From the NCBI GenBank assembly GCA_019058015.1, contig JAHLWH010000091.1:1241-65240 (forward strand): a stretch of 64,000 nt of DNA. Reading direction: 5' to 3'. How positions within the stretch are numbered: position 1 is the first letter of the stretch; each line of letters begins with the position of its first letter. A model generated the notes under the pieces. That model was not told the DNA's origin and made no database searches. It was given only the letters and a program-made list of their open reading frames with translations. The DNA is from Promethearchaeota archaeon. Its GTDB lineage: Archaea > Asgardarchaeota > Lokiarchaeia > Sigyniarchaeales > SOKP01. The translations under genes were made by a program, and so were the position numbers. Shown here in pieces: positions 954 through 56,228 of the stretch.

Positions 954-1664
954 ATGATTCAAAAAACAATTTCAGTAAAAATTCAAGGTGAAAACATTGA
1001 AATCTATTTAGGTTTCAATGGTATAAAGGTAAATATCAAAAATTTGAAAGATAAATATAATTTACAAGATAATGTTGATATTATTGATTATTTTGTTAAT
1101 CTTATATCTAAGTTAGAAAGTCAATATAATCAATCTACAATACAAATATTTAATCCAGAATTCGTGATTTCTCCAGAGCATATTATCACGGCATTTTATA
1201 ATACACATAAGGCTTTTTATGATAAAAAAAACATATCAAATCAAAAAAATCTCGAATTTTTATTATATCTCTCAACTAAAAGGCAGATTTCCGAAGCAAT
1301 CAAATATTTCGGCATAAAAGTTGATGAAAAAAAGTTAAAAACCCCGTTAGAACTTACATATTTAATAGCTAGTTATGAAAATAACGTTGAAACCATAAAA
1401 AAGTCTATCACTCAAGTACTTAACACCATTAATGACCCAACTATTATTACAGAAAAATCTATAGCAAAACTTCGAAAAATTATTAATTATTTTAAAATCA
1501 ATATGAATCAATTAGAAATTATATTTCATTCTAATGGAAAGGAATTTAATGAAGAAAATGCGTTTAGAAATAACAATTTAAATGATCTATATGAAGCATG
1601 CCTAGAAATAATTTATGAAAAAATGGCATTTTTATCTTTAGAGAAAACACCTAAGCCTGAATAA
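954..1664 (+). CDS. cgi121: KEOPS complex subunit Cgi121-like protein
   Basis: The core block IQIFNPEFVISPEHIITAFYNTHKAF...LEFLLYLSTKRQISEAIKYFGIK and the C-terminal IYEKMAFLSLEK match the conserved Cgi121 pattern (..H...A...A......E.L...SG.RQI.EAIK..G ... EK.AL.EL). This comparison is from memory of archaeal Cgi121 and is not verified. The ORF is longer than typical Cgi121. Confidence 0.6.
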   Translation: MIQKTISVKIQGENIEIYLGFNGIKVNIKNLKDKYNLQDNVDIIDYFVNLISKLESQYNQSTIQIFNPEFVISPEHIITAFYNTHKAFYDKKNISNQKNLEFLLYLSTKRQISEAIKYFGIKVDEKKLKTPLELTYLIASYENNVETIKKSITQVLNTINDPTIITEKSIAKLRKIINYFKINMNQLEIIFHSNGKEFNEENAFRNNNLNDLYEACLEIIYEKMAFLSLEKTPKPE

Positions 1665-2187
1665 TACGAACTTGTTCTTTAACTACACTCAAAATATCAT
1701 CTTTTGTTATAAATGAAATTCCAGTAAAATTACCTAATATTTCGATATTTACGATTTTATCTGGCTTTCTCAAATTTACTTTATTATTAAGACCTTCTGC
1801 AACGTGTTCGATTATTTCTAATTTTGATGTCTTAAAATTTCTTTTATTAACTTGGATTTTAAATGTTTCATTCTTTTTTACAACTTTAAGAAAATTCTCC
1901 GTTACGATCTTTTTTATTATATTTAAATCGGTCTCGCAAGCGTATTCAATAGGAGTAATTTTCAAGATATATTGAAAAAAATTTAAATTTTTTAGTGCCA
2001 TTTTCCTTAACTTCTCTATACATTTTTTGGGATTTAAATTTGTTAATGCAATAAATAATCCGGGAAATTCCACTCTAAAAATTAAGGGAAATTCATCACC
2101 CATCATAAATAACAAAAACCAAAGTTCTGCTTTGGCATTTATTTCATTATTTCTCGATGTGGATATTAACAGATTAAAATTTTTCAT
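1651..2187 (-). CDS. THUMP-domain RNA-binding protein (Tan1-like stand-alone THUMP)
   Basis: 178 aa. The N-terminal ferredoxin-like part (LLISTSRNNEINAKAELWFLL) and C-terminal part (FKIQVNKRNFKTSKLEIIEHVAEGL...VNLRKPDKIVNIEILGNFTGISF) fit the THUMP fold pattern of small archaeal THUMP proteins. Its ATG overlaps the upstream sua5 stop by 1 nt (TAATG). Confidence 0.5.
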   Translation of the reverse strand: MKNFNLLISTSRNNEINAKAELWFLLFMMGDEFPLIFRVEFPGLFIALTNLNPKKCIEKLRKMALKNLNFFQYILKITPIEYACETDLNIIKKIVTENFLKVVKKNETFKIQVNKRNFKTSKLEIIEHVAEGLNNKVNLRKPDKIVNIEILGNFTGISFITKDDILSVVKEQVRIIQA

Positions 2188-2873
2188 TAAATTCCTCCAT
2201 TATTAAAAATTTTTAAAATTTCTTCCTTGGAAATTGAACCGATTCTTAAAAATTTCAATTCCGACTTCTTTTTTGCTGAAGAACAATCAACAATTGTACT
2301 GGGAAACTGTGTTAATGTCTTTCCACCATCTAATATTACATCTATTTGACCAAATAATAATCTTGGTATATATTCTCCTTCTATAATGTTCTTTTGATTA
2401 GAAATATTTGCAGATGTTCCAATAATTCCAGCAAAATGTCCCTTCTCTTTAAGAACATTTAAAACACTTAGAATAATTTCATTTTCTGGGACTCTGAGAG
2501 CAATAGTCTCCTTACCACCTGTTAATTCGTCTGGAATAAACCCCATTTTTTTTTCAACAACAATAGTAACTTGACCAGGCCAAAATTTTTCAGCTATTTT
2601 TTGAGCAAATTCATTAAATTTTCCAATTTTTAAAGCTTCGTTTAAATCATTTGTTAAAACAGGAAGCCCTTTATCCCTTTCTCTAAATTTCATTTCAAAA
2701 ATCCTATTAATCACTTTAAGATTTTGTGGATCGCCACCGAGACCATAAACGGTATTTGTTGGATATGCAATTATTTTACCTTCAATTACTGCATCAGCTG
2801 CTTTCTTCAAAAATATTTGGTCCAGTTTATTATCTCCACTCAATTTTAATAATAATCCCATTATAAAAATCAA
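2187..2873 (-). CDS. sua5: L-threonylcarbamoyladenylate synthase, YrdC/Sua5 family (short form)
   Basis: YrdC-domain hallmarks are present: IIAYPTNTVYGLGGDP, KFRERDKGLPVL, FWPGQVTIVV, ALRVPENEI, GTSANISNQ. At 228 aa it lacks the long Sua5 C-terminal domain. Confidence 0.8.
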   Translation of the reverse strand: MIFIMGLLLKLSGDNKLDQIFLKKAADAVIEGKIIAYPTNTVYGLGGDPQNLKVINRIFEMKFRERDKGLPVLTNDLNEALKIGKFNEFAQKIAEKFWPGQVTIVVEKKMGFIPDELTGGKETIALRVPENEIILSVLNVLKEKGHFAGIIGTSANISNQKNIIEGEYIPRLLFGQIDVILDGGKTLTQFPSTIVDCSSAKKKSELKFLRIGSISKEEILKIFNNGGI

Positions 2874-2896
2874 CTTAATTTCTTTTTAAAAAATCT

Positions 2897-3343
2897 TTAT
2901 TCCTCTGGTGCTTTCCATTTTTCATAATATTCCCCAAACTTTTTTAGTAAAACCTTTGGTTCTATCTTTCTGTTCTCACTCATTGCTTTAAATGCTTCTA
3001 ACATGACTTCTAATTGTAGTAATTGAAATTCTTGATTTTTTTCATCGCTGGTTGTAAGAAATCGGTGCGTTATTTCATTGGTCTTGAAGATTTCCATAGA
3101 ATTAATGTTGTAAATATCCATAAAATAACCGATAAAAAATGCTCCGAGGAAGATTAGGGGAAATGCAATAATCAATATCCAAATTGTAAGTTCAAATGCT
3201 ATAAAAATAAGAGAAATAGCACTGATTGTAGACATTGCGATTTGATAATATGACTGCCCCATCTTGAGTCGAGACATCTGTCTTCCGACGAATCGAGCTG
3301 TTTTTACCCATCTGGGCTTTCTGACTTTTTTGTTATTAAACAT
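2897..3343 (-). CDS. Small membrane protein, function unknown
   Basis: 148 aa with two adjacent hydrophobic helices (YYQIAMSTISAISLIFIAFELTIWILIIAFPLIFLGAFFIGYF) and a soluble charged C-terminus. Confidence 0.4.
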   Translation of the reverse strand: MFNNKKVRKPRWVKTARFVGRQMSRLKMGQSYYQIAMSTISAISLIFIAFELTIWILIIAFPLIFLGAFFIGYFMDIYNINSMEIFKTNEITHRFLTTSDEKNQEFQLLQLEVMLEAFKAMSENRKIEPKVLLKKFGEYYEKWKAPEE

Positions 3344-3567
3344 CTTTTCACTGTTTGCTTTTATTAATATATTAAGCTTTTCATATTTAAAAAATAAACC
3401 AAATCTAAAGATATCTAAAAAGTAGATTGCTCTTCATCGATCTAAATTTTTAATTAAAAGTCCAAGCCTAAATTATTTCACACTCAAATATCAAGAAAAA
3501 AATGAAATATTTAGTTGATACTTATAATTTTAATTGTTAGTGAATGATTTTTTCAGGTTTTATTCAA

Positions 3568-4485
3568 TTATTTATTTTTTTCCTTTATTTCTAATTCTAA
3601 ATCAATGTATTTCCATGCATTTTTTATATTCTCTTCCCATTTAACTAAACCAACCTCAGTAAGTGTGTTAAATCTCTTTTGAATCTCTAAATACTCTTGA
3701 ATTGGTCTGCGTTTCGAGGGATCCAAATATTTTTTACTCGGCTTAGATAATTTGAATTCACCATTTTCAATTTCATATAATATCCAAAATCCAGTTTCCA
3801 CTGCCATCTTTCCCATTCTTACGGTATCTTCAGAAGCAAAACCCCAACCGGGTGGACAAGGCGCAAGTATATGAATATACCTAAATCCTTGAATATCTTT
3901 CGCTTTCTTTAATTTTTCATAAAGATCAATTGGATAAGAGATACAACATGTAGCTACATATGGGACGTTATGAGCCGCCACTATTGCAGGCAAATTCTTT
4001 TTGAATCGTTGTTTTCCAAAGGGTGTAGTTGTAGTTCTAGCCCCATGAGGTGTAGACGAGCTTCTTTGAATACCGGTATTCATATAAGCTTCATTATCAT
4101 AACAGACATAAAGAATATTAGAGTTTCTTTCTGCTGCACCACTTATACCTTGAATCCCAATGTCCGTTGTTCCACCATCTCCTGCAAATACTAAGGAAGT
4201 CATATCACCCCAACCTTTAGCTTTAAACGCTGCAGCTAGACCAGATGCCGCTGCTGCTGATGCAGCAAATGCCATATTAATAAAGGGGAAATTTGGGGCA
4301 GTTTTAGGCCATAACCCAACAACCACATTAAGGCAACTTGCCGGAGCAACCAGAGCGGTCTTAGGACCGAGCGCTTTCATCGCCCATCTAAGTGCCAACT
4401 CCAATCCACAACCTGCACAAGTTGAATTTCCTGCTAAGAATAATTCTTCTCTAGCTGTGTCTTGTAATTCTTTTAAACTAACCAT
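3568..4485 (-). CDS. porB: 2-oxoacid (pyruvate-type):ferredoxin oxidoreductase, beta subunit (TPP-binding)
   Basis: Shows the N-terminal Cys motif CAGCG and the TPP-binding GDGGTTDIG...NEAYMNTG. It is the last gene of a gamma-delta-alpha-beta operon. Substrate (pyruvate versus 2-ketoisovalerate) cannot be fixed by eye. Confidence 0.85.
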   Translation of the reverse strand: MVSLKELQDTAREELFLAGNSTCAGCGLELALRWAMKALGPKTALVAPASCLNVVVGLWPKTAPNFPFINMAFAASAAAASGLAAAFKAKGWGDMTSLVFAGDGGTTDIGIQGISGAAERNSNILYVCYDNEAYMNTGIQRSSSTPHGARTTTTPFGKQRFKKNLPAIVAAHNVPYVATCCISYPIDLYEKLKKAKDIQGFRYIHILAPCPPGWGFASEDTVRMGKMAVETGFWILYEIENGEFKLSKPSKKYLDPSKRRPIQEYLEIQKRFNTLTEVGLVKWEENIKNAWKYIDLELEIKEKNK

Positions 4486-5723: not shown

Positions 5724-6052
5724 TATTCAAATTCGCTCTCCCTTTTCATTTCTATTGCTTTTACGGGACATTCTTTCGCACAAATCCCACAGCCTTTACA
5801 ATATACATAGTCTATTGTGAAAAATCCATCCTCACTTTTTTGAATCACTCCTTCAGGACAATACATCCAGCAAAAACCACATTTAGTGCATTTTTTTTTG
5901 TCTATTACGGGTCTAAAAACCCTCCAATCTCCTGTCTCTCCCATACTTCCATAACAAGGAAATGATATGGGAATTGGAGGTAATTCCTTCCAATTTTTAT
6001 AATTTTGAAGTTTAGGTCTTTTATCTTTACTTTCCGCTATTATTTTCCACAT
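5723..6052 (-). CDS. porD: 2-oxoacid:ferredoxin oxidoreductase, delta subunit (2x[4Fe-4S] ferredoxin-like)
   Basis: 109 aa with two ferredoxin Cys clusters, CTKCGFCWMYCP and CKGCGICAKECP. Its stop overlaps the porA start. Confidence 0.85.
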   Translation of the reverse strand: MWKIIAESKDKRPKLQNYKNWKELPPIPISFPCYGSMGETGDWRVFRPVIDKKKCTKCGFCWMYCPEGVIQKSEDGFFTIDYVYCKGCGICAKECPVKAIEMKRESEFE

Positions 6053-6054
6053 AA

Positions 6055-6633
6055 TTAAATCATCTCCTTAACCATTTCAAATGCATCTCTTGCTGTTTTC
6101 ATATTTTTCTCAGCCCTTGAACCAAATTTTTTTTTAATAACTTTTTCCATAATATCTAGGCCATAAAACCCAGATACCTTAGCAAATGCTCCCAACATTG
6201 GAATATTCAAAATTGGAAACCCCTCTATTGCTAATTCATGCTTTAAAGAAATCCCAGTTGCATCAACCATATAGATTTTAACATTTTTTGGCAAATTATT
6301 ATTAAAATAAATTTTAAGATTGCTATTAATGATTAAAATCACTCCCTCTTTAATGGTAGCAAACACTCTGGGAATCATTAATAGAGTAGTATCAAAAATC
6401 AGTATAAAATCCGGGTCTGTTACACTACTATATGATCTAATTTGAGTATCCCTAGATATTTTAGAAAAAGCTTGTATTGGAGCACCCCTTCGTTCAGCAC
6501 CAATTATTGGTATAGCTATCGCATCTTTAAACCCACTTTCATATGCCATTTCCGCCAATAATTGTGAAGCGGTAATTGCTGTTTGACCTCCCCGGCCATG
6601 AAATGCTATTTCAATAATTTTTTTCTCTATCAT
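6055..6633 (-). CDS. porG: 2-oxoacid:ferredoxin oxidoreductase, gamma subunit
   Basis: 192 aa. FHGRGGQTAITASQLLAEMA and ERRGAP are typical of the gamma subunit. It is the first gene of the operon. Confidence 0.8.
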   Translation of the reverse strand: MIEKKIIEIAFHGRGGQTAITASQLLAEMAYESGFKDAIAIPIIGAERRGAPIQAFSKISRDTQIRSYSSVTDPDFILIFDTTLLMIPRVFATIKEGVILIINSNLKIYFNNNLPKNVKIYMVDATGISLKHELAIEGFPILNIPMLGAFAKVSGFYGLDIMEKVIKKKFGSRAEKNMKTARDAFEMVKEMI

Positions 6634-6734
6634 GTTTCAATGCTCCATTGTAATGTATAATTTTAAAGTGTTCAAAATATTTGTTTTTATTTTTAATAAA
6701 ATATTTCATAATAAAATTATATTTATAATTATAT

Positions 6735-7280
6735 ATGGCAAAGATTAAAAAAGATGACTCTGGAAAAGATTTAGGTTTTGATTGTCCGATCTGTAAGAAA
6801 GGAAGACTCATTTTAAGTAAGTATATTCATGAACTTCCAGATGGAGATAAATATCTCATCATAAAATTCGAATGCAATAAATGTGATTTTACGAAAAATG
6901 ATCTTATTCCAGTAGAAACACCCATTAAGCCAGGTAAATTTATTTTAAACGTTAATGAGAAAGAAGACTTAAAATCAAAAGTTTTTAGGTCATCTTCAGG
7001 TGTATTGGAAATCCCTGAATTAAAAATGGAAATTGAGCCAGGTCCTGCAGCAGACTTTTATATTACAAATATTGAAGGTGTATTAACTAGAATGAAAGAT
7101 GCTGTTTCGTTTTTTAAAAAAGGTTTATCTGAAGAAGATCAAAAAGTGAATAAAATCCTTGAAAATATAGATAGGGCCATTAATGGGGAATTTAAATTCA
7201 CATTAATAATAACTGATGAATTAGGTGGGAGTTATATCGTGCCTATTAATGAAAAGTCATTAAAAATTGAATATTTTTGA
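6735..7280 (+). CDS. zpr1: ZPR1-type zinc-finger protein
   Basis: Shows CPICKKG...CNKCDF (a C4 zinc finger) followed by VFRSSSGVLEIPELKMEIEPGPAADFYITNIEGVL. This matches the ZPR1 A-domain signature (S.sa...IPEL.lei.pg...G.itnvEG). Confidence 0.75.
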   Translation: MAKIKKDDSGKDLGFDCPICKKGRLILSKYIHELPDGDKYLIIKFECNKCDFTKNDLIPVETPIKPGKFILNVNEKEDLKSKVFRSSSGVLEIPELKMEIEPGPAADFYITNIEGVLTRMKDAVSFFKKGLSEEDQKVNKILENIDRAINGEFKFTLIITDELGGSYIVPINEKSLKIEYF

Positions 7281-7295
7281 AAAATTATAAACTTT

Positions 7296-8471
7296 TTACT
7301 GTTTTGATTTATAGCGAACTTTAACTAATAAATCCCTTAATTCTATTTTGTCACTATCTTTTGTTATATATTTTTTTCGAGCACCCTCTTCAAGAGGCAT
7401 GGTTAGAACTTTATTCCCTTGAAGTGACACCATTTTACCAAAATCTTCTTTAATCACCTGTTTCATGGCAGCTAAACCAAACCTTAATCCTAAAATTCGA
7501 TCAAATGCATTGGGAGTTCCTGCTCTCATAGTATGCCCTAACACAACACTTCTACATTCAAAATCCACACCATTTTTCTTAAATTCTTCTTTTAAATCGT
7601 CTCGCAAGTTTAATTCTTGAACTAATATTTTACTTATTTTTAACGATGATAATAAAGGATTGCCATATTCATCTTTGTATAAATTATCTATTGTTTTTTT
7701 CGTAATTGTCTTGAAATCTCTTAATAATGATTCTTTACTTGGATAAGCTCCTTCAGAACAAGCAATAAGATGATATTTATAGCCACTATTTACTCTATTT
7801 TTAAGCACATCGATTACATCTGATTCTAAATCAAAAGGAGTTTCAGGAATTAAAATAATATCAGCACCAGTTGAAATTCCACTATACATAGTTAAAAAAC
7901 CAGCATCTCTTCCCATAACTTCGATAATAAACACTCTTTGGTGGGATCTGGCAGTGGTTGTAAGATTATCCATTACATTTGAAGCTAGTTGAACTGCACT
8001 CCAGAATCCAAAGGTATAATGTGTTCCTAATAAATCATTATCTATTGTTTTAGGAACTCCGACAACTTTTGCATTGCAATATTTATACATTGCAGCAGCA
8101 ACTCCTAATGTATCATCACCACCTATAGCAATAAGAGCATCGATATCTAAATCTTTAAATTTCGATGCCATCTCAGTTGCAATTTTTATTGCTAATTGTT
8201 CTTTTTCCTTCTGGTCCGATAGTTTATGTACTGCTTTATAAGGATTATATCTTGATGTATAAATTAATGTTCCTCCAATAGTGTGTAAATCGTCTAACTC
8301 AGCTATATTAAGAGGTTCCTTAATATTTTCCATAAAACCCTTCCATCCCTTTTTAATTCCAATACATTCAATTCCAGAATCAAATGCTTTCAGTAGTATT
8401 CCATATAAAACGGAATTGAGGCCAGGGGCGTCTCCTCCACCCGTCAGAATTCCTACTTTTTTTATAGCCAT
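7296..8471 (-). CDS. pfp: Family-A 6-phosphofructokinase, predicted PPi-dependent
   Basis: Motifs GILTGGGDAPGLN, IGGDDTLG, PKTIDNDL and MGRDAGF are present. Asp in GGDD and Lys in PKTIDND are the residues associated with pyrophosphate specificity rather than ATP. Confidence 0.85.
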   Translation of the reverse strand: MAIKKVGILTGGGDAPGLNSVLYGILLKAFDSGIECIGIKKGWKGFMENIKEPLNIAELDDLHTIGGTLIYTSRYNPYKAVHKLSDQKEKEQLAIKIATEMASKFKDLDIDALIAIGGDDTLGVAAAMYKYCNAKVVGVPKTIDNDLLGTHYTFGFWSAVQLASNVMDNLTTTARSHQRVFIIEVMGRDAGFLTMYSGISTGADIILIPETPFDLESDVIDVLKNRVNSGYKYHLIACSEGAYPSKESLLRDFKTITKKTIDNLYKDEYGNPLLSSLKISKILVQELNLRDDLKEEFKKNGVDFECRSVVLGHTMRAGTPNAFDRILGLRFGLAAMKQVIKEDFGKMVSLQGNKVLTMPLEEGARKKYITKDSDKIELRDLLVKVRYKSKQ

Positions 8472-42433: not shown

Positions 42434-43033
42434 TTAAATTGAATTATCCTTTTTTTCTGCACAAAATTGACAATAAATTAGCTCTTTTGGATAATAATTT
42501 CCACAAAATTTGCATTTTATTAGAGAATTTTTTAAAATCTCTTTACCCAGCTTTACAAAGATTGACTCGACATTGTATCCCGTTTTAGAGCTGCATTCAA
42601 TTACTTTTCCCTGAAAATCATATCTACTAAAAAAATTCAAGACATCTTTGTTAGAAAGCTGTCTAATTTCTTCTAAATCAAGTTTGGATCCAATTAATAA
42701 TTTAGTATTGGGAGGATTAGGACTATTATTAATAATCTCAAGCCAATTTTCTAAATCTTCTAATGATTTTCTGTTGGTAATATCATACAAAATTAATGCT
42801 CCCGATGCACCGCTAACATATGACGGAAAAAGGGTTCGAAATTTCTCTTCACCTGCAAAATCCCATATGTTAAGTAAAATCACACTATCTTCCACTACAA
42901 CCTTCTTCGTCTCAAAATCAACTCCTATTGTTGATTGCGTCCCTATATTAAATTTCCCAGTACAGAATCTTCTGATTAAGCTTGTTTTACCTACTGCCTT
43001 TGCTCCCGCAACCACTATCTTAAATTTAATCAA
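42434..43033 (-). CDS. Rab/Ras-like small GTPase with C-terminal zinc ribbon
   Basis: G1 is GAKAVGKT, G2 is STIGVDF, G3 is WDFAGEE, G4 is GSKLD and G5 is SSKTG. The C-terminus is CKFCGNYYPKELIYCQFC (aa 174-191), with no CAAX or CC prenylation motif. Confidence 0.85.
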   Translation of the reverse strand: MIKFKIVVAGAKAVGKTSLIRRFCTGKFNIGTQSTIGVDFETKKVVVEDSVILLNIWDFAGEEKFRTLFPSYVSGASGALILYDITNRKSLEDLENWLEIINNSPNPPNTKLLIGSKLDLEEIRQLSNKDVLNFFSRYDFQGKVIECSSKTGYNVESIFVKLGKEILKNSLIKCKFCGNYYPKELIYCQFCAEKKDNSI

Positions 43034-43154: not shown

Positions 43155-45494
43155 CTATTTTGATTTAACTTTATCATTTTGATATTTGAAATTTGCGATT
43201 TTATATATTTCCTGTGCTAATTTCTTTCCAATATTAGGTGTTTCCATTAAGTTTCCAATATCAGCATTGAAAATATCCTTAATTTTATGGAATTTTGATA
43301 ATAACCTTTTTGCTCTTAAATAATTAATCCCCGGAACTCCGGCAATAATAAATTCTAATAACCGAGATATTTTTATTGGTGCTTTTTCAAATCTTAATTT
43401 AAATTCTTGCTTTTTTAAAGATTGTTCTTTCTTAACTAAATGGTATAATGTTTTAGCGGTTTCTCGAGAATCCTTTGTTTGATAGATATAAATACCCATA
43501 TTAATCATAACAGAAAAAATAGCACCATATATAGCATTTTCGCTTAGATTTGAAGAAATAATTGGGTTTTCACCTTCGAGAATTAAGATTGGCCGATAAA
43601 AATTTTGTGATAAGTCTTTTAATTCTTTAAAAAAACGTCCATCTTTTATTGAATCTGAAAAATCTTTAGTGCTTTTTCTTTCAACCCCAACCTTTTTTGA
43701 AATAATATAATCCGCAACTTCCAAATTCTGGAGCTTTATTTGAACTCCATATAAAGATAATGTCCTAACTACTGAAGAGGCTGTTTCACGATTATCCACA
43801 TAAATAGTATAATTTTCTGCTCCTCTTATTGGAGTAATCGATTCTGAATCTAAGTAATTTTCCAAACCATTTTTTTTTTTTTGCTCAATATCTTTGATAA
43901 AATCCATTAAATTCTTTTTCTTTTCATACTTTGAATTTTTCATTCTTATCAAACTCTCTTTCATTTTTTTTTCTTTCGTTAATTCCGCCCAATAATAACC
44001 TTCATCTCGGGTGCCCTTTGCGATTAATATTATTATTTTTCCTGCCTTTTGCCTTCCTGTACGTCCACGTCTTTGAATTGATCGAACAACGCTTGGTGTC
44101 ATATCATAAAAAATTACCAAATCACAATCTGGTATATCAAGTCCTTCTTCACCAACATTAGTCGAGACTAATACATTATAAATTCCTTCCTTAAACTTAT
44201 CAAGTATTTCTAATTGATTTTTCTGAGACATACCCTTATCTCGTCCTTTTGTTTGTTGACCTACAAATTTATGAATTTGAATAACGTCATCTTCACCGAA
44301 ATAATTAATTATATTATTAACTGAGTCTCGATATTGTGAAAAAACTAAAATCCTCGAATTTTCATTTAAAGAAATTTGTTCAGATAATAATTCCTTTAAT
44401 TTTTTCATCTTTGGATGAATTATTCCTTCTGAGATTAGCTTTCGTGTTAAATTAATGGCTTTTTTGAAATCTCGATTTTGAAATAACTCATTAAGTGATT
44501 TTGAACTCTTATTATTTTGAATATTTTCCTCACTTTTGGTAAAATATTGCTCTAGAGCTTTAAGACCCTGCGTCTCCAATAGTTCAATCATATGGGATAA
44601 GCGTAAGGCATTTGCAACCATCTTTTTTGCATTAAACATAGCGAATTTCTCATTATCATCAGTTGTTTGAGAAATTTTTAAATCAATTTCTTTATTTAAT
44701 CCCAGTATTTTTAAACGGGATATGTTTCTGATTACTTCGCTTTCAATTAAGTTCTGATGTTTTAAGAATTTATAAGTTTCTTTTAACTTTTTTTCTAAAA
44801 TATTTAAAATTTCTAAAAAGTCTTCAGGTAAATCAATTTTAATCCATATAATATCAACTTTTTGAATATAAGGTTTGACATCTTCATCCTTCTCTGTCCT
44901 AATCTCGATTTTATCGATAAATAAATTTTCTTTTATTATATTAATTTTCTCTTCAGTCGCCCCTGGACTTGCCGTTATTCCTAAGATTTGTTTATTTCCA
45001 CCAAGACTAATATATTTTTGAGCAATAAACGTATACGCATAATTCCCTACTGCTCTATGACATTCATCAAAAATGATTAAAGAAACATTACTGAGAGAAT
45101 AGTTATTTGAGATTATATCATTAGAAGTAGTTTGAGGAGTTGAAAAAACTATTTTTGCATTTTTCCATAATTCTTTTCTTTTTTCTGGTGATATCGCTCC
45201 TGTAAATACAATGAGTTTCTCATCTGGAATATTAGTAAATTCTGAAAAAATTTTTTTATGTTGTACAACCAGTGGTTTAGTTGGAGCAAGAAACAAAATT
45301 TTCGAATTTTTTTTTTCATTTAATTTATACATAACAAGTAATAACGCAATTATTGTTTTACCTAAACCTGTTGGAATAACAACTAAGCAATTTGAATTAA
45401 TACAATTTATAAAAATATTTTCTTGATATTTTCTTCTAATTAATTTATTTCTTTTTAGAAGTGGATGATTAATATAAATCTTATCTTTATTCAA
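43155..45494 (-). CDS. hef: Hef (helicase-associated endonuclease for fork-structured DNA; XPF/FANCM-like)
   Basis: The SF2 helicase part has PTGLGKT, DECH, TASP and QRRGRTGR. The C-terminal ERCC4 nuclease part has VDNRE...GVERKS..DF, followed by an HhH2 region (GVPGINYLRAKRLL...NIGKKLAQEIY). Confidence 0.85.
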   Translation of the reverse strand: MNKDKIYINHPLLKRNKLIRRKYQENIFINCINSNCLVVIPTGLGKTIIALLLVMYKLNEKKNSKILFLAPTKPLVVQHKKIFSEFTNIPDEKLIVFTGAISPEKRKELWKNAKIVFSTPQTTSNDIISNNYSLSNVSLIIFDECHRAVGNYAYTFIAQKYISLGGNKQILGITASPGATEEKINIIKENLFIDKIEIRTEKDEDVKPYIQKVDIIWIKIDLPEDFLEILNILEKKLKETYKFLKHQNLIESEVIRNISRLKILGLNKEIDLKISQTTDDNEKFAMFNAKKMVANALRLSHMIELLETQGLKALEQYFTKSEENIQNNKSSKSLNELFQNRDFKKAINLTRKLISEGIIHPKMKKLKELLSEQISLNENSRILVFSQYRDSVNNIINYFGEDDVIQIHKFVGQQTKGRDKGMSQKNQLEILDKFKEGIYNVLVSTNVGEEGLDIPDCDLVIFYDMTPSVVRSIQRRGRTGRQKAGKIIILIAKGTRDEGYYWAELTKEKKMKESLIRMKNSKYEKKKNLMDFIKDIEQKKKNGLENYLDSESITPIRGAENYTIYVDNRETASSVVRTLSLYGVQIKLQNLEVADYIISKKVGVERKSTKDFSDSIKDGRFFKELKDLSQNFYRPILILEGENPIISSNLSENAIYGAIFSVMINMGIYIYQTKDSRETAKTLYHLVKKEQSLKKQEFKLRFEKAPIKISRLLEFIIAGVPGINYLRAKRLLSKFHKIKDIFNADIGNLMETPNIGKKLAQEIYKIANFKYQNDKVKSK

Positions 45495-45693
45495 ATTAAT
45501 ATCTCCAAATTTAATTACGTTTTTACTTCTTTATCTTTTGTATTTTATGACACTATTCCCTAAAATTCAAAAATATTTTGATTTTGAGTTAAATTAATAA
45601 TTTATAAGAGAATAGAAAAACAGATTTATTAATTAATTAATAGACTTAATAACAGTTTTTTCTGTAATTTGTTATTCTATAAGTAGTTACTTT

Positions 45694-48600
45694 TTAATTT
45701 TCAGTAAAATACAATAAATCCATAATAGATAAATTATCTGGAATCTTTATACCTAAGACTTTACATTGTTGAATGATATAATTCCTAATTGGTTCAAAGT
45801 TTTTAAAAGTATGAATATAATAGGGGATTTCAACTAAAGTAACATTATTTCCTTTACACCTTTTCCTTTTAATTCTACTATTTGCTAATTGTTTTTCAAA
45901 TTCTTCCCTAGTTTTATGATAATAATTTGGAAATTCATAATGTTGAATCCCATGATATTCAAAAGCTATACTTAATTCTTCACAATATCCATCAAGATGT
46001 AATCTATTGCCTTCTTCATTAATTAACCAATGGGGACTTAATTTTGGAAAATTTTTTTTAAATATTTTCTCAAAATATTCACGACAGTTATTTTCACTAC
46101 GACCATAGGAACATTCTGGACACCAATGACCTTCTGTAACATCATTAGGCTTCATTTCAAATGTATGCCCCTTACTACATTCCCACATTAATTTTGTCCT
46201 ATTATTAATATATATTTTTGAAACACATATCCCCCTTTTATCTAATTTCCTCGCAATTAGTTGCATTCTTTCAATATTTCGTTTATTATATTCTTTTTTT
46301 AAATTATCTAATGCCTCTAAAGATTGTTCTTTATTCTTTCCAGATAATTTTTTATTTATTTTATTTTCTAGTTTTTCAATGGTTATGTTTTTTAAGAATT
46401 TATATGAATGCAAGCATTTATTTACATCAATACTAAATTCTAATCCTAATTCGTAATTGCTAATAAATTTCTTATTTACTTCTCTTGAAAAAGCTGTTGA
46501 TAAAGTATCAAAAAATTTTCCCTCGATAGCATTTGCGTTCTTATCTTCAGAATAAAAAGTATTTAATCTTTCTAGTGTTTTTAAAGCTAACTTCTTATTT
46601 TTTCCCGATAAATTCCTTTCTATAGAGTCAATAAAACATCTTAAACTATCATTAGAAATTTTTGAATTATTTTTTAAAGACCGTGTTATATCTAAATTTA
46701 GAATATTTCCCAATTCCTTATTATTTATGAATCGACTTTTTTCATTAACAAAAGCAACACGTAATACCTCAAAAAATCGACCTTCAAGAGATTTTTCGAT
46801 TTTATCAAAATTTTTTTTCTCTTTTAAAGAATTTAAAAGATCTATAGATTTTCTCTTGACATCTCCAGTTAGATATTTATTTATATTATGTTCTATTTCT
46901 TTAATTGTATCATATCTAATTTTCACATTATACTTGGAACACCGATGTATTATTTGATATATATTTCTTGTTATTTTATTTTTATAACCTAGAACATTTG
47001 AGAAGTTTTTACGAATTTTTTTCAATACATCTAATGTGAGTGAAATATCTTTATTTTCAATATTTTCATTTCTGTTTATGTTAGGTCGCATTTTCTTATC
47101 CGACATAACTTCATTTATATATTCTTTATAAGTTTTTCCTAATTTTTTTTTTAACCATTCACTTCTTATATTTTGGAAATATTTTTCTCTTAACCCTTGA
47201 AATTCACTTAAATTTTTAACATTTACAAAATTAATAGAAACTTCCACCTCTTTTTTTAAAAGAGAATATTTTTCATCAAAAAAATCAAGTAATTTCGATT
47301 TTATAGATTTTTTTTCCTCTGATTTAATAGAATTCAAATAATATTGTTCAATAATATAATTAATTTTTCTCCAATCAATCTTAAGTCCTATATTATTTGC
47401 AATTTCTTGTACTTTATTTATATCTAAATTGCAATACTTCAATTTATAGGCAATAAATTTTTCGATTTCCTTATTTTTATTAATGTTAATACATTTTATT
47501 CTTAAACCATTTTCGACCTTTTTATTATAATTTACCCAATACAAAAATTTTTTTGTAAGTCTTAGACCATAATTAGCATTTTTTTTAAAGATTTTTTCAT
47601 ATTCTATAAATATTTTTTGAACTCCTTTATCCATCAAGTTTGTAAATTCCAATGTTTGTTTTAGTTTAATATCCAATTTCGATATCATTTCTTTTTCGTT
47701 GGTTATATTTTCATTTATGTTTTTAAAATCCGAATTTTCTTTATCTATGATATTTTCTTTTTTATTACAATTAATTTCTTCATTTGTTTTTCCAATTTTT
47801 GAAATCGTTTTTTTCTCCACACTAATAGAATTTTTATCTAATGTTTTATCTGATTTTTTTTCTCTAGGAATATTAATGGGAGTTCCATGTGAGCCAGATA
47901 ATTCTTCAATTTCATTTTCAATCTCTCTATTTTTATAATCATTTGGATGCCCTTCTGTGATTTCGTGTGATTTATTATTATATTCATCTAGAACTTCTAT
48001 TTCTCTTGTCTCCTTTTCCAATTTTTCTTTTTCTAAATTATAAATTTTATTACAATATTCCTGCTCTCTTTCCCGTAAATCCAGAAATTCTTTTTTTAAT
48101 TCTCTATTTTCTTTCCTTAAAATTTGATTCTCTGAAATTTCAGTTTCATCAATATCTTTGTAAATTGACTCTGCGAATATCTTGATCTCTATATTATTTT
48201 CCTTAGCAATTTTCTCAATAGTACCAAAACTTATTTCCAATCCTGTATGTTTTTCATAGTCTGAAATAAATTCTAACGGATTATCCTTATTATAAAGTAC
48301 ATCAATTAAGAATTTATCAAATAAATGTTTCTTGTTTATCAGATCACATTTTTCTAAAAGACTTTCTCTATAATGATCAATGACCCCATCGTCTAATTTC
48401 TCAATGTATTCCTTGAACTCTGGTCTTATTTCTGTACCCTTATTAGCAGATATTTTCTTTTCTATAGAAAACTCTTCTAGATACATCTGCAATATGAAAT
48501 CCCCAAAAACTTCAATAGTTTCTTTTCTATACTCTTCGATTTCTTTTTTAGTAATTCCCTCGTGGACCTCTTCTTTTTCTTTATCATCTATCTTTTCTTT

Positions 48601-48990
48601 AAGTTTTTCACTTTTAATATCCTTTGTTTCATCATTTGCCTTTTCTTTATCTTTATCCTTCAATTCTTCTTGATGTCTATCATTTTTTCCATCTTTAGTT
48701 ATTCTCTCATCAATTTCTTTTCTTTTTTGGCTTTCTTCCTCTTCATTCAGTTTTTTCTTCTCTTCTGCTTCTTCTTTTAGCCTTTCTAAATATTCTTTCG
48801 ATTCTCGCTTCTCCTTTTCATCTTGTTCCTTTATCATTTCTTCAAGCTCTTTTTTTTTTAATTTTTCTTCAGAAATATCATCTTTTCTTTCTTGAGGTCT
48901 ATCTTCTATTTTCTCCTTGGGTTTTTCCTTTATTTTTTCTTTAGGCTTCTCATAATAATCTTTACCGCCCCAATCACTACCAAACTCCAT
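45694..48990 (-). CDS. Orphan 1098-aa modular protein: K/E-rich N-terminus, HTH-like helical modules (three tandem ~87-aa repeats), C-terminal zinc ribbon plus Vsr/PD-(D/E)xK-like domain
   Basis: This is one uninterrupted ORF. Aa 1-160 are charged and low-complexity (KEKIKEKPKEKIEDRP...). Aa 648-905 hold three tandem related modules. Aa 931-960 read WECSKGH...HWCPEC. Aa 997-1017 read LHLDGYCEELSIAFEYHGIQH. All antisense ORFs in the track here are shadows of the purine-rich coding strand. Confidence 0.7.
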   Translation of the reverse strand: MEFGSDWGGKDYYEKPKEKIKEKPKEKIEDRPQERKDDISEEKLKKKELEEMIKEQDEKEKRESKEYLERLKEEAEEKKKLNEEEESQKRKEIDERITKDGKNDRHQEELKDKDKEKANDETKDIKSEKLKEKIDDKEKEEVHEGITKKEIEEYRKETIEVFGDFILQMYLEEFSIEKKISANKGTEIRPEFKEYIEKLDDGVIDHYRESLLEKCDLINKKHLFDKFLIDVLYNKDNPLEFISDYEKHTGLEISFGTIEKIAKENNIEIKIFAESIYKDIDETEISENQILRKENRELKKEFLDLREREQEYCNKIYNLEKEKLEKETREIEVLDEYNNKSHEITEGHPNDYKNREIENEIEELSGSHGTPINIPREKKSDKTLDKNSISVEKKTISKIGKTNEEINCNKKENIIDKENSDFKNINENITNEKEMISKLDIKLKQTLEFTNLMDKGVQKIFIEYEKIFKKNANYGLRLTKKFLYWVNYNKKVENGLRIKCININKNKEIEKFIAYKLKYCNLDINKVQEIANNIGLKIDWRKINYIIEQYYLNSIKSEEKKSIKSKLLDFFDEKYSLLKKEVEVSINFVNVKNLSEFQGLREKYFQNIRSEWLKKKLGKTYKEYINEVMSDKKMRPNINRNENIENKDISLTLDVLKKIRKNFSNVLGYKNKITRNIYQIIHRCSKYNVKIRYDTIKEIEHNINKYLTGDVKRKSIDLLNSLKEKKNFDKIEKSLEGRFFEVLRVAFVNEKSRFINNKELGNILNLDITRSLKNNSKISNDSLRCFIDSIERNLSGKNKKLALKTLERLNTFYSEDKNANAIEGKFFDTLSTAFSREVNKKFISNYELGLEFSIDVNKCLHSYKFLKNITIEKLENKINKKLSGKNKEQSLEALDNLKKEYNKRNIERMQLIARKLDKRGICVSKIYINNRTKLMWECSKGHTFEMKPNDVTEGHWCPECSYGRSENNCREYFEKIFKKNFPKLSPHWLINEEGNRLHLDGYCEELSIAFEYHGIQHYEFPNYYHKTREEFEKQLANSRIKRKRCKGNNVTLVEIPYYIHTFKNFEPIRNYIIQQCKVLGIKIPDNLSIMDLLYFTEN
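46276..47049 (-). repeat. Three tandem ~87-aa protein-level repeat modules inside the 1098-aa ORF
   Basis: Repeat anchors are spaced 87-88 aa apart. One set is LTGDVKRKSIDLLNSLKE (aa 707), LSGKNKKLALKTLERLN (aa 794) and LSGKNKEQSLEALDNLKK (aa 882). Another is LEGRFFEVLRVAF (aa 735) and IEGKFFDTLSTAF (aa 822). A third is NNKELGNILNLDITRSL and SNYELGLEFSIDVNKCL. Confidence 0.6.
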
Positions 48991-49091
48991 AATTTATCAC
49001 AATTTATTTTCTATTAATAATATTATAAATTAAACATTTATAAAGAGAAAAATCCTTTATATCAAATACAACCTAACTCACTAATAATGAT

Positions 49092-49195
49092 TAGGCGAGG
49101 GGGAATTCGAATCCCCGATCTCTACGGTCTGCCCATTAATCTAAAATTAAAATAATTGTGAGCGTAGCGCACTAACCGGGCTGTGCTACTCGCCT
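49092..49195 (-). tRNA. tRNA-Val (anticodon CAC) with an intron in the anticodon loop
   Basis: Manual cloverleaf: acceptor AGGCGAG/CTCGCCT; D arm GCAC-AGCCCGGTTA-GTGC; anticodon stem CTACG/CGTAG with loop CTCACA|intron|C; variable loop AGATC; T arm GGGGA-TTCGAAT-TCCCC; discriminator A. CCA is not encoded. A TTTATATA-like element (minus strand, about 49214..49221) lies about 20-26 nt upstream. Confidence 0.85.
49128..49156 (-). other. tRNA intron (about 29 nt) at or near the canonical 37/38 position
   Basis: AUUAUUUUAAUUUUAGAUUAAUGGGCAGA separates A37 from C38. Exon CUCA (32-35) can pair with intron UGGG, and intron UUA can pair with UAA. The 3' bulge is longer than a strict bulge-helix-bulge motif, so the exact boundaries are provisional. 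Confidence 0.55.
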
Positions 49196-49292
49196 ATAAA
49201 TAAAAAATTAATTATATAAAAAACAAATAAACCAAAAAAGATAAATTTGATTAATTTCTAAATTTAATATTAACCTATTTGAGGTCTCATTT

Positions 49293-49595
49293 TTGTCCAC
49301 TCCTAATGAAACAAGAAAATTACGTAAAAAATATAAAGATGTACAAAAAAAAATCAAAATAGGTTCAATTTTTCTTACAAGATTTGAAAAAGCAAGAATA
49401 GTAGGAGCTAGAGCTTTACAGATATCGTTTGGAGCGCCAATTCTTATTATTCGACCCAAAGAAGTTATAGATCCAATCAAAATTGCTCAGTTAGAACTAG
49501 AATCTGGTATCCTCCCCTTGACTTTACGTAGAAGACTTCCAAATGCAGATTATCAAGATATTCCCATAAACTGGCTCGTTATTAAGAAAAGTTAA
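49293..49595 (+). CDS. rpoK: DNA-directed RNA polymerase subunit K (Rpo6/RpoK)
   Basis: LTRFEKARIVGARALQISFGAPILI and ELESGILPLTLRRRLPN are Rpo6/Rpb6 signatures. The only available start is TTG at 49293, preceded by GAGGT at 49281..49285. Confidence 0.85.
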   Translation: MSTPNETRKLRKKYKDVQKKIKIGSIFLTRFEKARIVGARALQISFGAPILIIRPKEVIDPIKIAQLELESGILPLTLRRRLPNADYQDIPINWLVIKKS

Positions 49596-55085: not shown

Positions 55086-56228
55086 TTAGAAGCACCTATG
55101 GATCACTTGAGGCCCCATTTCCTTATATTCTCGCCTAGTTACCCACATTCTATGGAATGTTTTAAGAGATGCGAGAATGGAGCCACCAATCCATACAGAA
55201 TACATTCTTTCTGGAGGAGCTATAATTTTAACGTCAACACTTTCAGGAATTTGTTCTTTTATTTCCTTGGTCAATCGTTCTTTTAACCCTGGATACATTG
55301 TAGAACCACCAGAAAGCACGATATTTCCATAGAGATCTCTTCTTAAATCGACATCACATTCAGAAATTGACCCTACTATAATATCATCCATGGGCTCCAA
55401 TTCTTTACCAATCACGGATGGGTTAAACATGCATTCAGGTGCAAGGAATCTCTCAACTCCAACATTAATTGTTTCACCATCGGGTAACATATAGGATTTT
55501 TCCATACCTGCTACTTTCTTTGAAAGCATCATTTCCTTTTCCGGATCGACAGCTACATAGCATAATTTCTCTTTAATGTCTCGCACAATTTCTTTTTCAG
55601 CTGAAGTTGTAAATGCATAACCTTTTTGTCTCAATAATCTTTGCAAGTAATTGGTGATGTCTCTACCAGCAAGGTCAATTCTTTGAATTGCATGGCTTAA
55701 GGCAAACCCTTCGAATATTGGGACAACGTGTGAAACACCATCTCCAATATCTATAACACACCCCGTGGTACGACCAGAGGCGTATAGAGATAATACTGCT
55801 TGCATTGCAACATATAATGCAGGAACATTAAAGGTTTCAAACATTATTTCAGCCATTTTTTCTCTGTTTGGCCTTGGGTTTAATGGTGCTTCAGTTAAAA
55901 GTACTGGATGTTCGCTAGGATCGATACGCAGATCGGTATAAAAGGTATAATGCCATATTTTTTCCATAGCGGTCCAGTCTTCTATAATACCGTGCTCGAC
56001 AGGAAACATTAATTTGAGGACGCCTTTGAGTTGTAATGCTTCTTCCCCAATATAATACTCTCTAGTATAGTGCTCTACATCCGTCATTATACTTTCGTAT
56101 TTAGGATATCCTATAAGCGTTGGAAATACGGATCGTGGCTGATCTTCTCCAGCAAAACCATTCTTTGAAATACCAGTTCCATTATCTACGACCAAGGCTT
56201 TAGCGGAAAGAAAATCTTCTTCAGACAT
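55086..56228 (-). CDS. Actin (Asgard 'lokiactin'-type, eukaryote-like)
   Basis: 380 aa. [85 protein letters not shown] is near-identical in pattern to eukaryotic actin ([77 protein letters not shown]). Also present are N-terminal VVDNGTG and C-terminal [12 protein letters not shown]. Confidence 0.95.

Follow-up and report, generated by a model that had tools for sequence, protein, structure and literature searches.

A probable degenerating homing-endonuclease-like gene with a zinc ribbon and a Vsr-like core beside hef in a Promethearchaeota genome

Background

Does the zinc ribbon and nuclease module at the C-terminus of a 1098 amino acid (aa) archaeal protein still belong to a working enzyme, and how did the gene that encodes it come to lie between a tRNA gene and hef? 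The gene, referred to here as the target, is found in a 64,000 nucleotide (nt) stretch of a Promethearchaeota (Loki-type Asgard) genome (assembly GCA_019058015.1, contig JAHLWH010000091.1, positions 1,241 to 65,240), and this whole stretch is called the window. Positions 45811-46200, which encode aa 931-1060 of the target, had been read from the sequence alone as a zinc ribbon fused to a nuclease core of the Vsr/DUF559 type (the original prediction). Our analyses suggest that the target is probably a free-standing homing-endonuclease-like selfish gene that has entered the degeneration phase of the homing cycle, and that its nuclease most likely has no activity or much reduced activity. We take this view of the nuclease because Ser1038 is present in all alleles in place of the last catalytic Asp, omega (the ratio of non-synonymous to synonymous divergence) is near 1 in the C-terminal 60% of the gene, one allele carries E1011D, and another carries frameshifts. 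The module itself is already known and ordinary; what is new is the 1098 aa architecture, the Asp-to-Ser active site and the putative mosaic family described below. The features of the target, with the analyses that define them, are:

45694-48990, minus strand: target open reading frame (ORF), 1098 aa (open reading frame list)
47995-49068, minus strand: shared head unit, 78 nt upstream plus codons 1-332 (blastn; Pfam on the tails)
46279-46800, minus strand: two tandem 87 aa repeats (aa 731-817 and 818-904) directly before the zinc ribbon (local alignment)
46108-46275, minus strand: CapR/DUF4379-like domain (aa 906-961), a helix and a CHCC treble-clef zinc ribbon (Pfam; ligand columns)
45751-46107, minus strand: EDxHD/Vsr-like core of restriction-endonuclease fold (aa 962-1080) (PHROG; homologue columns; AlphaFold model; Foldseek; hhalign)
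45877-45879, minus strand: codon AGT, Ser1038, in the column of the catalytic Asp (Vsr D97, I-Bth0305I D222) (homologue columns; hhalign)

From N- to C-terminus, the ORF consists of a lysine- and glutamate-rich (K/E-rich) N-terminus, the head (aa 1-332), a central region, the two 87 aa repeats, the zinc ribbon and the nuclease-like core. It starts with MEFGSDWGGKDYYEKPKEK, which is common to all of its paralogues and alleles, and the head runs from MEFGSDWGGKDYYEK through aa 332. No domain was recognized in the N-terminal ~900 aa by Pfam, PHROG or PDB searches, and there is no second copy of the gene within the window. BLAST self-comparison did not pick up the 87 aa repeats, but a shuffle test then bore them out: their local alignment scored 132, whereas shuffled sequences averaged 34 +/- 6.8 (z = 14.5). 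They had no Pfam, PHROG or PDB match and are presumed to be DNA-binding.

The zinc ribbon

The four ligands proposed in the original prediction, C938, H942, C957 and C960, lie exactly where they had been placed, in the stretch WECSKGHTFEMKPNDVTEGHWCPEC (aa 936-960). Pfam PF14311 (DUF4379, a probable treble-clef zinc finger) matched aa 923-961 with 27.6-29.1 bits, above its curated cut-off of 24.5, and CapR (PF21817) gave a sub-threshold match to the same module (19 bits, E = 0.0016). Among 1,309 homologous zinc-ribbon repeats, collected as profile-search matches, the four ligand columns held C in 1308, H in 1277, C in 1309 and C in 1303. Since DUF4379 scored above its cut-off and the ligands are kept across these repeats, the four-ligand pattern is not a product of chance, and we infer that the ribbon is a nuclease-associated DNA-binding module.

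Homologues of the module

A query with the last 193 residues of the target recovered eight stand-alone proteins of 174-327 aa with 35-48% identity (E = 6e-49 to 1e-13), most of which consist of two zinc ribbons and a core, with one having a single ribbon and one having three. A profile of the stand-alone homologues, searched against 1.84 billion cluster representatives, gave 57,468 matches at E <= 1e-3, a count inflated by zinc-ribbon arrays, and 7,030 at E <= 1e-30; in the best-scoring proteins as many as 16 ribbons stand in tandem, usually with a single core. The module matched phrog_559 ('HNH endonuclease', 4e-26), phrog_9084 ('homing endonuclease', 1.5e-9) and phrog_7140 ('intron encoded nuclease', 2.5e-8), and tblastn found it in 201 phage records, where it is labelled 'homing endonuclease', 'HNH endonuclease' or 'DUF4379'. 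A structure search of the viral proteins in BFVD returned 88 matches at E <= 1e-3, down to 2e-12, in a list that was headed by giant viruses (Klosneuvirus, 44% identity, template modelling score (TM) about 0.8) and that also held a phage 'Homing endonuclease' and a 'Group I intron protein'. Viral contigs yielded only a distant homologue of the module.

Occurrence in stand-alone bacterial, phage and giant-virus proteins had been expected, and such proteins (115-330 aa) are indeed among the homologues. The suggestion that it is unusual for the module to be part of an oversized protein held in part: large proteins with the module are common, in the form of the ribbon arrays, but a non-zinc-ribbon N-terminus of ~900 aa is unusual. 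The group of putative homing endonucleases to which the module belongs is among the largest and is mostly mislabelled. An HNH endonuclease was rejected as a reading of the target, which has no Pfam HNH match and whose CHCC cluster is a structural site. Where phrog_559 and the GenBank phage records say 'HNH endonuclease', this is probably a propagated misnomer for the module, and these annotations should be corrected.

Fold of the nuclease core

Residues 962-1098 had no Pfam match, including none to DUF559 or DUF2726, an NCBIfam search of the target gave noise only, and PDB sequence searches with the module, a nine-sequence profile and a 59-sequence core profile gave chance matches only (RadA, formin). 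Of 59 diverse family cores, 18 touched DUF2726, all below threshold (best 1.4e-4), and one each touched DUF559 and Tox-REase-5. One bridging homologue (P0266), named 'very-short-patch-repair endonuclease' by the Joint Genome Institute (JGI), matched the family profile at 4.6e-12 and DUF559 at 7.7e-4, the latter with 19.8 bits and so below the cut-off of 20.6. We take DUF559 and DUF2726 to be Pfam members of the PD-(D/E)xK clan, and the matches of these relatives would support a superfamily link rather than membership of the target in either family.

A core-only AlphaFold model (AF2, 113 sequences) had a predicted local distance difference test score (pLDDT) of 91.4 and an alpha-beta-beta-beta-alpha-beta topology (helices H4-17 and H68-87; strands E41-43, E48-53 and E91-96). 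In this model D1000 (residue 40) and E1011 (residue 51) occupy the positions expected for a PD-(D/E)xK fold, with the Asp at the start of strand 2 and the Glu in strand 3. Foldseek against the PDB gave no significant match (E >= 0.2, TM 0.45-0.54); the neighbours included Vsr (1vsr at rank 3, probability 0.72, and 1cw0 at rank 9, TM 0.50; the range for Vsr was TM 0.45-0.50), I-Bth0305I (3r3p at rank 7, TM 0.50), AbaSI/PvuRts1I, the endonuclease-containing R2 retrotransposon protein and arenavirus cap-snatching endonucleases. An earlier two-domain AF2 model had given a poor Foldseek list, which the core-only model improved, although the E values were still not significant. The modelled topology, the placing of D1000 and E1011, and nearest PDB folds that are mostly PD-(D/E)xK-type nucleases assign the core to that fold.

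Profile alignment with hhalign provided a comparison with I-Bth0305I, using the 3r3p sequence. The 113-sequence profile aligned to the I-Bth0305I catalytic fragment with P = 0.0015 and paired D1000 with D196, E1011 with E206, H1013 with N208, S1038 with D222 and K1041 with K225; a less deep profile produced a spurious 11-residue match, so that the meaningful alignment came from the deeper profile only. The reading as a zinc ribbon plus a Vsr/DUF559-type PD-(D/E)xK core is supported by DUF4379, the PHROG families, the P0266 bridge, the AF2 topology and this alignment. The similarity that had been anticipated in Pfam and the PDB was seen as the non-significant structural neighbours Vsr and I-Bth0305I, but not as a direct match to Vsr or DUF559.

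The Vsr neighbours raise the question of whether the target might be a genuine very-short-patch mismatch-repair endonuclease domain fused to a large host protein. Vsr is a repair enzyme linked to the Dcm methyltransferase. The presence of Vsr structures among the nearest PDB folds, together with the name given to P0266, would favour such a domain, and the E. coli enzyme (PDB 1VSR/1CW0) shares with the family a restriction-endonuclease-like fold in which its residues E25/D51/H64/H69/D97 map onto E/D/(H,N,Q)/H/D. However, the target had no significant sequence or profile match to E. coli Vsr: neither Pfam nor NCBIfam gave a Vsr match, and hhalign of the core profile against the single Vsr sequence (100% identical to 1cw0_A) had a probability of 0.2% and aligned only the D97 helix and a strand. 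The core also lacks the intrinsic Cys/His cluster of Vsr (the H64-C73 region) and has GIQHY instead, and E. coli Vsr, a repair enzyme rather than a mobile gene, differs from the target in binding zinc internally and in having Trp residues that intercalate at the mismatch. Finally, the target gene is an accessory insertion (see below), and no methyltransferase was present in the nine neighbouring genes that were scanned. A true Vsr repair enzyme was rejected for reasons of family, motif and context, and is extremely improbable here.

As a separate observation, the best Foldseek neighbours of the core model included two mitoribosomal proteins, from Toxoplasma (9i05_Xr, probability 0.90, TM 0.54) and Tetrahymena (6z1p_AS), which we suspect to contain RAP/FASTK-type Vsr-like domains. 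These neighbours point tentatively to a structural relationship of the present nuclease family with RNA-binding pseudo-nucleases of eukaryotes.

Catalytic residues and Ser1038

The core residues named in the original prediction proved to be correctly placed and conserved. In a set of 135 cores from the representative search, D1000, E1011, G1014 and H1017 were each present in 135/135 and Q1016 in 121/135; in an independent set of 112 homologues, the counts were 111 (D1000), 111 (E1011), 112 (G1014), 112 (H1017) and 108 (Q1016). These positions are therefore invariant or nearly so, with Q1016 at about 90-96% across the two sets. As a catalytic set the list was incomplete, since the replacement of the last catalytic Asp had escaped notice. 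At the column of residue 1038, all 135 cores and 108 of 109 aligned homologues (243/244 together) have Asp, and the target has Ser, encoded by AGT, two substitutions away from GAT or GAC. The helix that carries it (NSRIKRKRC) had been noted simply as a basic patch, and the substitution within it had been overlooked. Ser1038 occurs in all four alleles (the window, P0159 at locus L012, P0160 at L005, and L009). Residue 998 is His in the target and Glu in about 90% of the family; apart from these two positions, all conserved core residues are intact, including E966/E974, D1000, E1011, H1017 and K1041.

In I-Bth0305I, the residues E170/D196/N208/H213/D222 are equivalent to Vsr E25/D51/H64/H69/D97, and the substitution D222N prevents cleavage (PMC3239194). 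Read from the sequences, Vsr, I-Bth0305I and the module family all have a spacing of 11 residues between the Asp column and the Gly that precedes the following strand. In the canonical relatives, a Mg2+-dependent active site is formed by a Glu in helix 1, an Asp in a strand (Vsr D51), a Glu/His position in a strand, a His in a loop (Vsr H69, proposed as general base) and an Asp in helix 2 (Vsr D97). Of the set E, D, E, H, D that characterizes the CapR-like plus EDxHD/Vsr-like group, the target lacks the last member, and Ser1038 would be expected to inactivate or strongly weaken the enzyme. The active nuclease implied by the original prediction is undercut because this last catalytic Asp is replaced, and, as long as Ser1038 is not reverted, the target is not well suited to nuclease assays.

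Insertion between tRNA-Val and hef

In order to place the target gene in its genomic context, the window was compared with two Promethearchaeia/Promethearchaeota metagenome-assembled genomes, L001 and L002, whose Hef is 90% identical to that of the window. The features concerned are:

49091-49196, minus strand: tRNA-Val(CAC) with a 29 nt intron (aragorn -i)
45123-49073, no strand assigned: imported block, consisting of the insertion at 45480-49073 (blastn) and the divergent tract of hef nt 1-372 (comparison with L001 and L002)
43155-45494, minus strand: hef (helicase, ERCC4 nuclease and helix-hairpin-helix), the downstream neighbour (Pfam)

The gene order actin, PAS histidine kinase, GNAT acetyltransferase, 167 aa ORF, tRNA, hef, GTPase is kept in L001 and L002. 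Both lack the target gene, which is present in the window and at loci L012, L005, L006 and L009. The tRNA-Val(CAC) gene, also conserved in L001 and L002, is the sole tRNA gene in the window and was missed by default ARAGORN and at Rfam gathering thresholds. Homology to the two gene-less relatives ends at window position 49074, 17 nt beyond the 3' end of the tRNA gene, and resumes at about 45479, the start of hef.

The first part of hef is itself divergent. Nucleotides 1-372 (window 45123-45494) contain 105 window-specific differences from both L001 and L002, after which there is about 1 difference per 60 nt; in 150 nt windows, identity is 66-79% over the first ~450 nt against 92-99% elsewhere, and at the protein level the first 150 residues of Hef are 69% identical to the gene-less relatives against 95.5% for the remainder. 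Because the divergence stops sharply after nt 372, we delimit the imported block at about 45123-49073. The N-terminal part of hef appears to have been replaced along with the insertion, and the whole fits the pattern of acquisition by recombination with flanking co-conversion, as left by double-strand-break repair. The locus shows both a presence/absence polymorphism at a fixed site and co-conversion of the flank, which are hallmarks of homing endonuclease genes. In the proposed mechanism, enzymes encoded by ancestors of the target gene would have cleaved close to the 5' end of hef, and homing would have spread the gene, the block of ~4 kb arriving with 372 nt of foreign hef sequence through double-strand-break repair and co-conversion. 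The flagged residues would be the C-terminal DNA-targeting and cleavage module of this selfish gene, with the zinc ribbon and the 87 aa repeats likely binding DNA. The value of the locus lies in a clear and datable case of homing-type gene flow in an Asgard chromosome, with exact breakpoints by a tRNA gene and a co-conversion tract that sits inside a DNA-repair gene.

The target gene is the only ORF of at least 80 aa in the block, which means that the block holds no integrase or transposase gene, and a search for terminal inverted or direct repeats across window positions 45300-49300 found only AT-rich chance matches. An integrase- or transposase-mediated island was rejected on these two grounds.

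A second, related element has entered the same region in another Promethearchaeota genome. At locus L013 (positions 5896-7758) a 585 aa ORF, P0163, interrupts an L001-type hef after nt 81, on a contig that ends before any resumption of hef; since this element also interrupts hef, the 5' end of the gene has been hit repeatedly. P0163 shares only aa 408-560 with the target (71% identity) and has its own repeats of the type QLDL[TS]K[IV]PQ[TS]; it may be an intron, an intein or a plain disruption of hef.

At L005 (positions 3174-3906; also at L006, and at L009 positions 1-300) an extra 733 bp lies between the tRNA and the gene. This segment consists of 97 bp of ancestral spacer and a very hydrophobic 134 aa ORF of no family, and it has been lost from the window.

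Allele divergence and decay

Omega was calculated by the Nei-Gojobori method for codons 471-1098 in six allele pairs. It ranged from 0.72 to 1.22 in all six; the corresponding values for hef and the epimerase were 0.23 and 0.17. In the three pairs that were tested, omega of the target gene significantly exceeded that of hef (binomial P = 0.0027 for window-L005, 1.3e-5 for L005-L009 and 5e-5 for window-L009) and was indistinguishable from 1. The L009 allele has a 1 nt deletion at codon 725 and a 1 nt insertion at codon 1027, and the P0159 allele has E1011D. The alleles thus show successive stages of decay, namely loss of the catalytic Asp, E1011D and frameshifts.

Several points weigh against a degenerating homing-endonuclease-like gene. 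The enzyme may be able to accept Ser in place of the equivalent of D97, for instance if this residue hydrogen-bonds the His. The catalytic residues other than 1038 and the zinc ligands are intact, and the frame of 1098-1115 aa is open in three of the four alleles (the window, L012 and L005), which is more than long neutral decay predicts. The two frameshifts of L009, which was assembled from short reads, may be artefacts, and part of the L009 differences form a recombinant patch rather than independent mutations. Within the module itself, each pair has 1-3 synonymous and 2-7 non-synonymous changes, so that the power of omega there is low. The event itself is a presumed insertion in the window, as opposed to a deletion in L001 and L002.

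Some of these points would suit a site-specific endonuclease or nickase that is still active, in which Ser1038, possibly helped by Asn1037 or His998, replaces the Asp in a working homing or intron-less mobility endonuclease. The intact residues E966, E974, D1000, E1011, H1017 and K1041, the four zinc ligands and the open frames are all in keeping with this, and the hef co-conversion tract shows that homing-like transfer occurred. Against it are the near-invariance of the Asp column, the loss of I-Bth0305I cleavage on substitution of the equivalent D222 (PMC3239194), the omega values near 1 in the C-terminal 60%, and the presence of one frameshifted allele and of another with E1011D. We consider a still-active enzyme unlikely, and prefer a homing-endonuclease-like gene that is degenerating.

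Shared head and interchangeable tails

The head of the target is not confined to this gene. Blastn of the window against locus L007 aligned the head at 92.9% identity over 1081 nt, and two paralogues carry it in front of other nuclease domains:

L007, 207-3680: P0162, 1157 aa, same head with a LAGLIDADG_3 tail (Pfam 9.4e-8), on a contig with different flanks
L010, 522-3052: P0164, similar head with a tandem HNH_3 tail (Pfam 2.1e-10)

L010 is one locus added by a metagenome scan; its head and tail are in separate ORFs (522-1121 and 1154-3052), with the reading frame broken between them. Codons 161-240 of the window gene are 98.8% identical to the LAGLIDADG paralogue at L007, against 84% to its own orthologues, and because this stretch is closer to the paralogue than to the orthologues we conclude that the head has been exchanged recently. 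Synonymous divergence is likewise mosaic along the gene (0.235 for codons 161-345, against 0.016 for codons 471-935). The head would thus appear to keep recombining with paralogues that bear other nucleases.

Three unrelated nuclease types sharing one head through recent recombination suggest that the prokaryotes most closely related to eukaryotes have a modular selfish-gene family that is as yet undescribed. It is possible, and we put it forward only tentatively, that Promethearchaeota harbour an undescribed family of mosaic mobile genes of ~1,100 aa, with a conserved promoter and a K/E-rich head of ~330 aa joined to interchangeable EDxHD/Vsr-like, LAGLIDADG or tandem HNH tails, which have repeatedly invaded the tRNA-Val-hef interval. 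In such a family the head might have a function of its own (tethering, dimerization or promotion of repair), which would make the gene a distinct homing element rather than an accidental fusion. No description of an Asgard family with a head and swappable tails was found in the papers on Asgard mobile elements that were consulted or by text search.

A conserved head with exchangeable nuclease tails could also be read as a domesticated or conflict-system protein, either a pseudo-nuclease that serves as a DNA-binding factor or one of a polymorphic set used for defence or inter-genome conflict, and not for homing. The joining of one head to Vsr-like, LAGLIDADG and HNH tails with recent recombination, the loss of the catalytic Asp while the frame is kept, and the variability of the tRNA-Val-hef interval, whose cargo differs between genomes, are all compatible with it. 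Yet no immunity-like gene follows the target, the next gene being hef; no secretion-associated domain was recognized in the N-terminal ~900 aa (by Pfam and other searches, which included no specific prediction of signal peptides); LAGLIDADG_3 and HNH_3 are domains typical of homing endonucleases; and near-neutral evolution speaks against a maintained host function. A domesticated or conflict role seems quite improbable, and a polymorphic toxin in particular was rejected on the lack of an immunity gene and of a recognizable secretion-associated domain and on the homing-type tails.

Comparison with known homing endonucleases

The closest described systems are the homing-endonuclease genes in which three to five CapR/DUF4379/DUF723-like domains of ~60 aa precede a domain of ~100 aa distantly related to EDxHD/Vsr; this CapR-like plus EDxHD/Vsr-like family was placed as an outgroup of the EDxHD/Vsr homing endonucleases, with thousands of unannotated relatives (PMC12350094, 2025). 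The target resembles this group in having a CapR/DUF4379/DUF723-like zinc module of ~55-60 aa on the N-terminal side of a homologous C-terminal nuclease core of ~100-115 aa, and in its direct sequence homology to stand-alone members and to phage genes labelled as homing endonucleases. It differs in having one zinc module, rather than the three to five of the intron-encoded examples or the up to 16 of database proteins, in its unrelated N-terminus of ~900 aa, in its location on an Asgard archaeal chromosome and not in a phage intron, and in the Ser that replaces the last catalytic Asp.

I-Bth0305I (EDxHD, PDB 3R3P; PMC3239194) appears to have the same order of catalytic residues, consistent with the hhalign result, and the same bipartite design of DNA binding and nuclease. 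Unlike the target, it is the product of a group I intron and uses NUMOD/helix-turn-helix modules with no zinc ribbon. In I-Bth0305I the His lies four residues after the Gly, whereas in the target it lies three after. The similarity between the two is seen by profile only, and D222 is present and essential in I-Bth0305I and absent in the target.

The free-standing homing genes of T-even phages (the Seg/Mob type) encode GIY-YIG or HNH enzymes of 200-300 aa. The target is like them an intergenic single-gene insertion lacking an integrase and terminal repeats, with presence/absence polymorphism and co-conversion of an adjacent conserved gene. It is unlike them in its length of 1098 aa, its archaeal chromosome and its Vsr-like core.

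Other genes in the window

Two further genes of the window were characterized:

42434-43033, minus strand: Ras-family small GTPase (Pfam Ras, 2.3e-42)
55086-56228, minus strand: 380 aa actin homologue (Pfam Actin, E = 1.8e-133)

The GTPase ends in CxxC...CxxC (CKFCGNYYPKELIYCQFCAEK), an apparent C-terminal zinc ribbon, and the actin homologue fits the Asgard 'lokiactin'.

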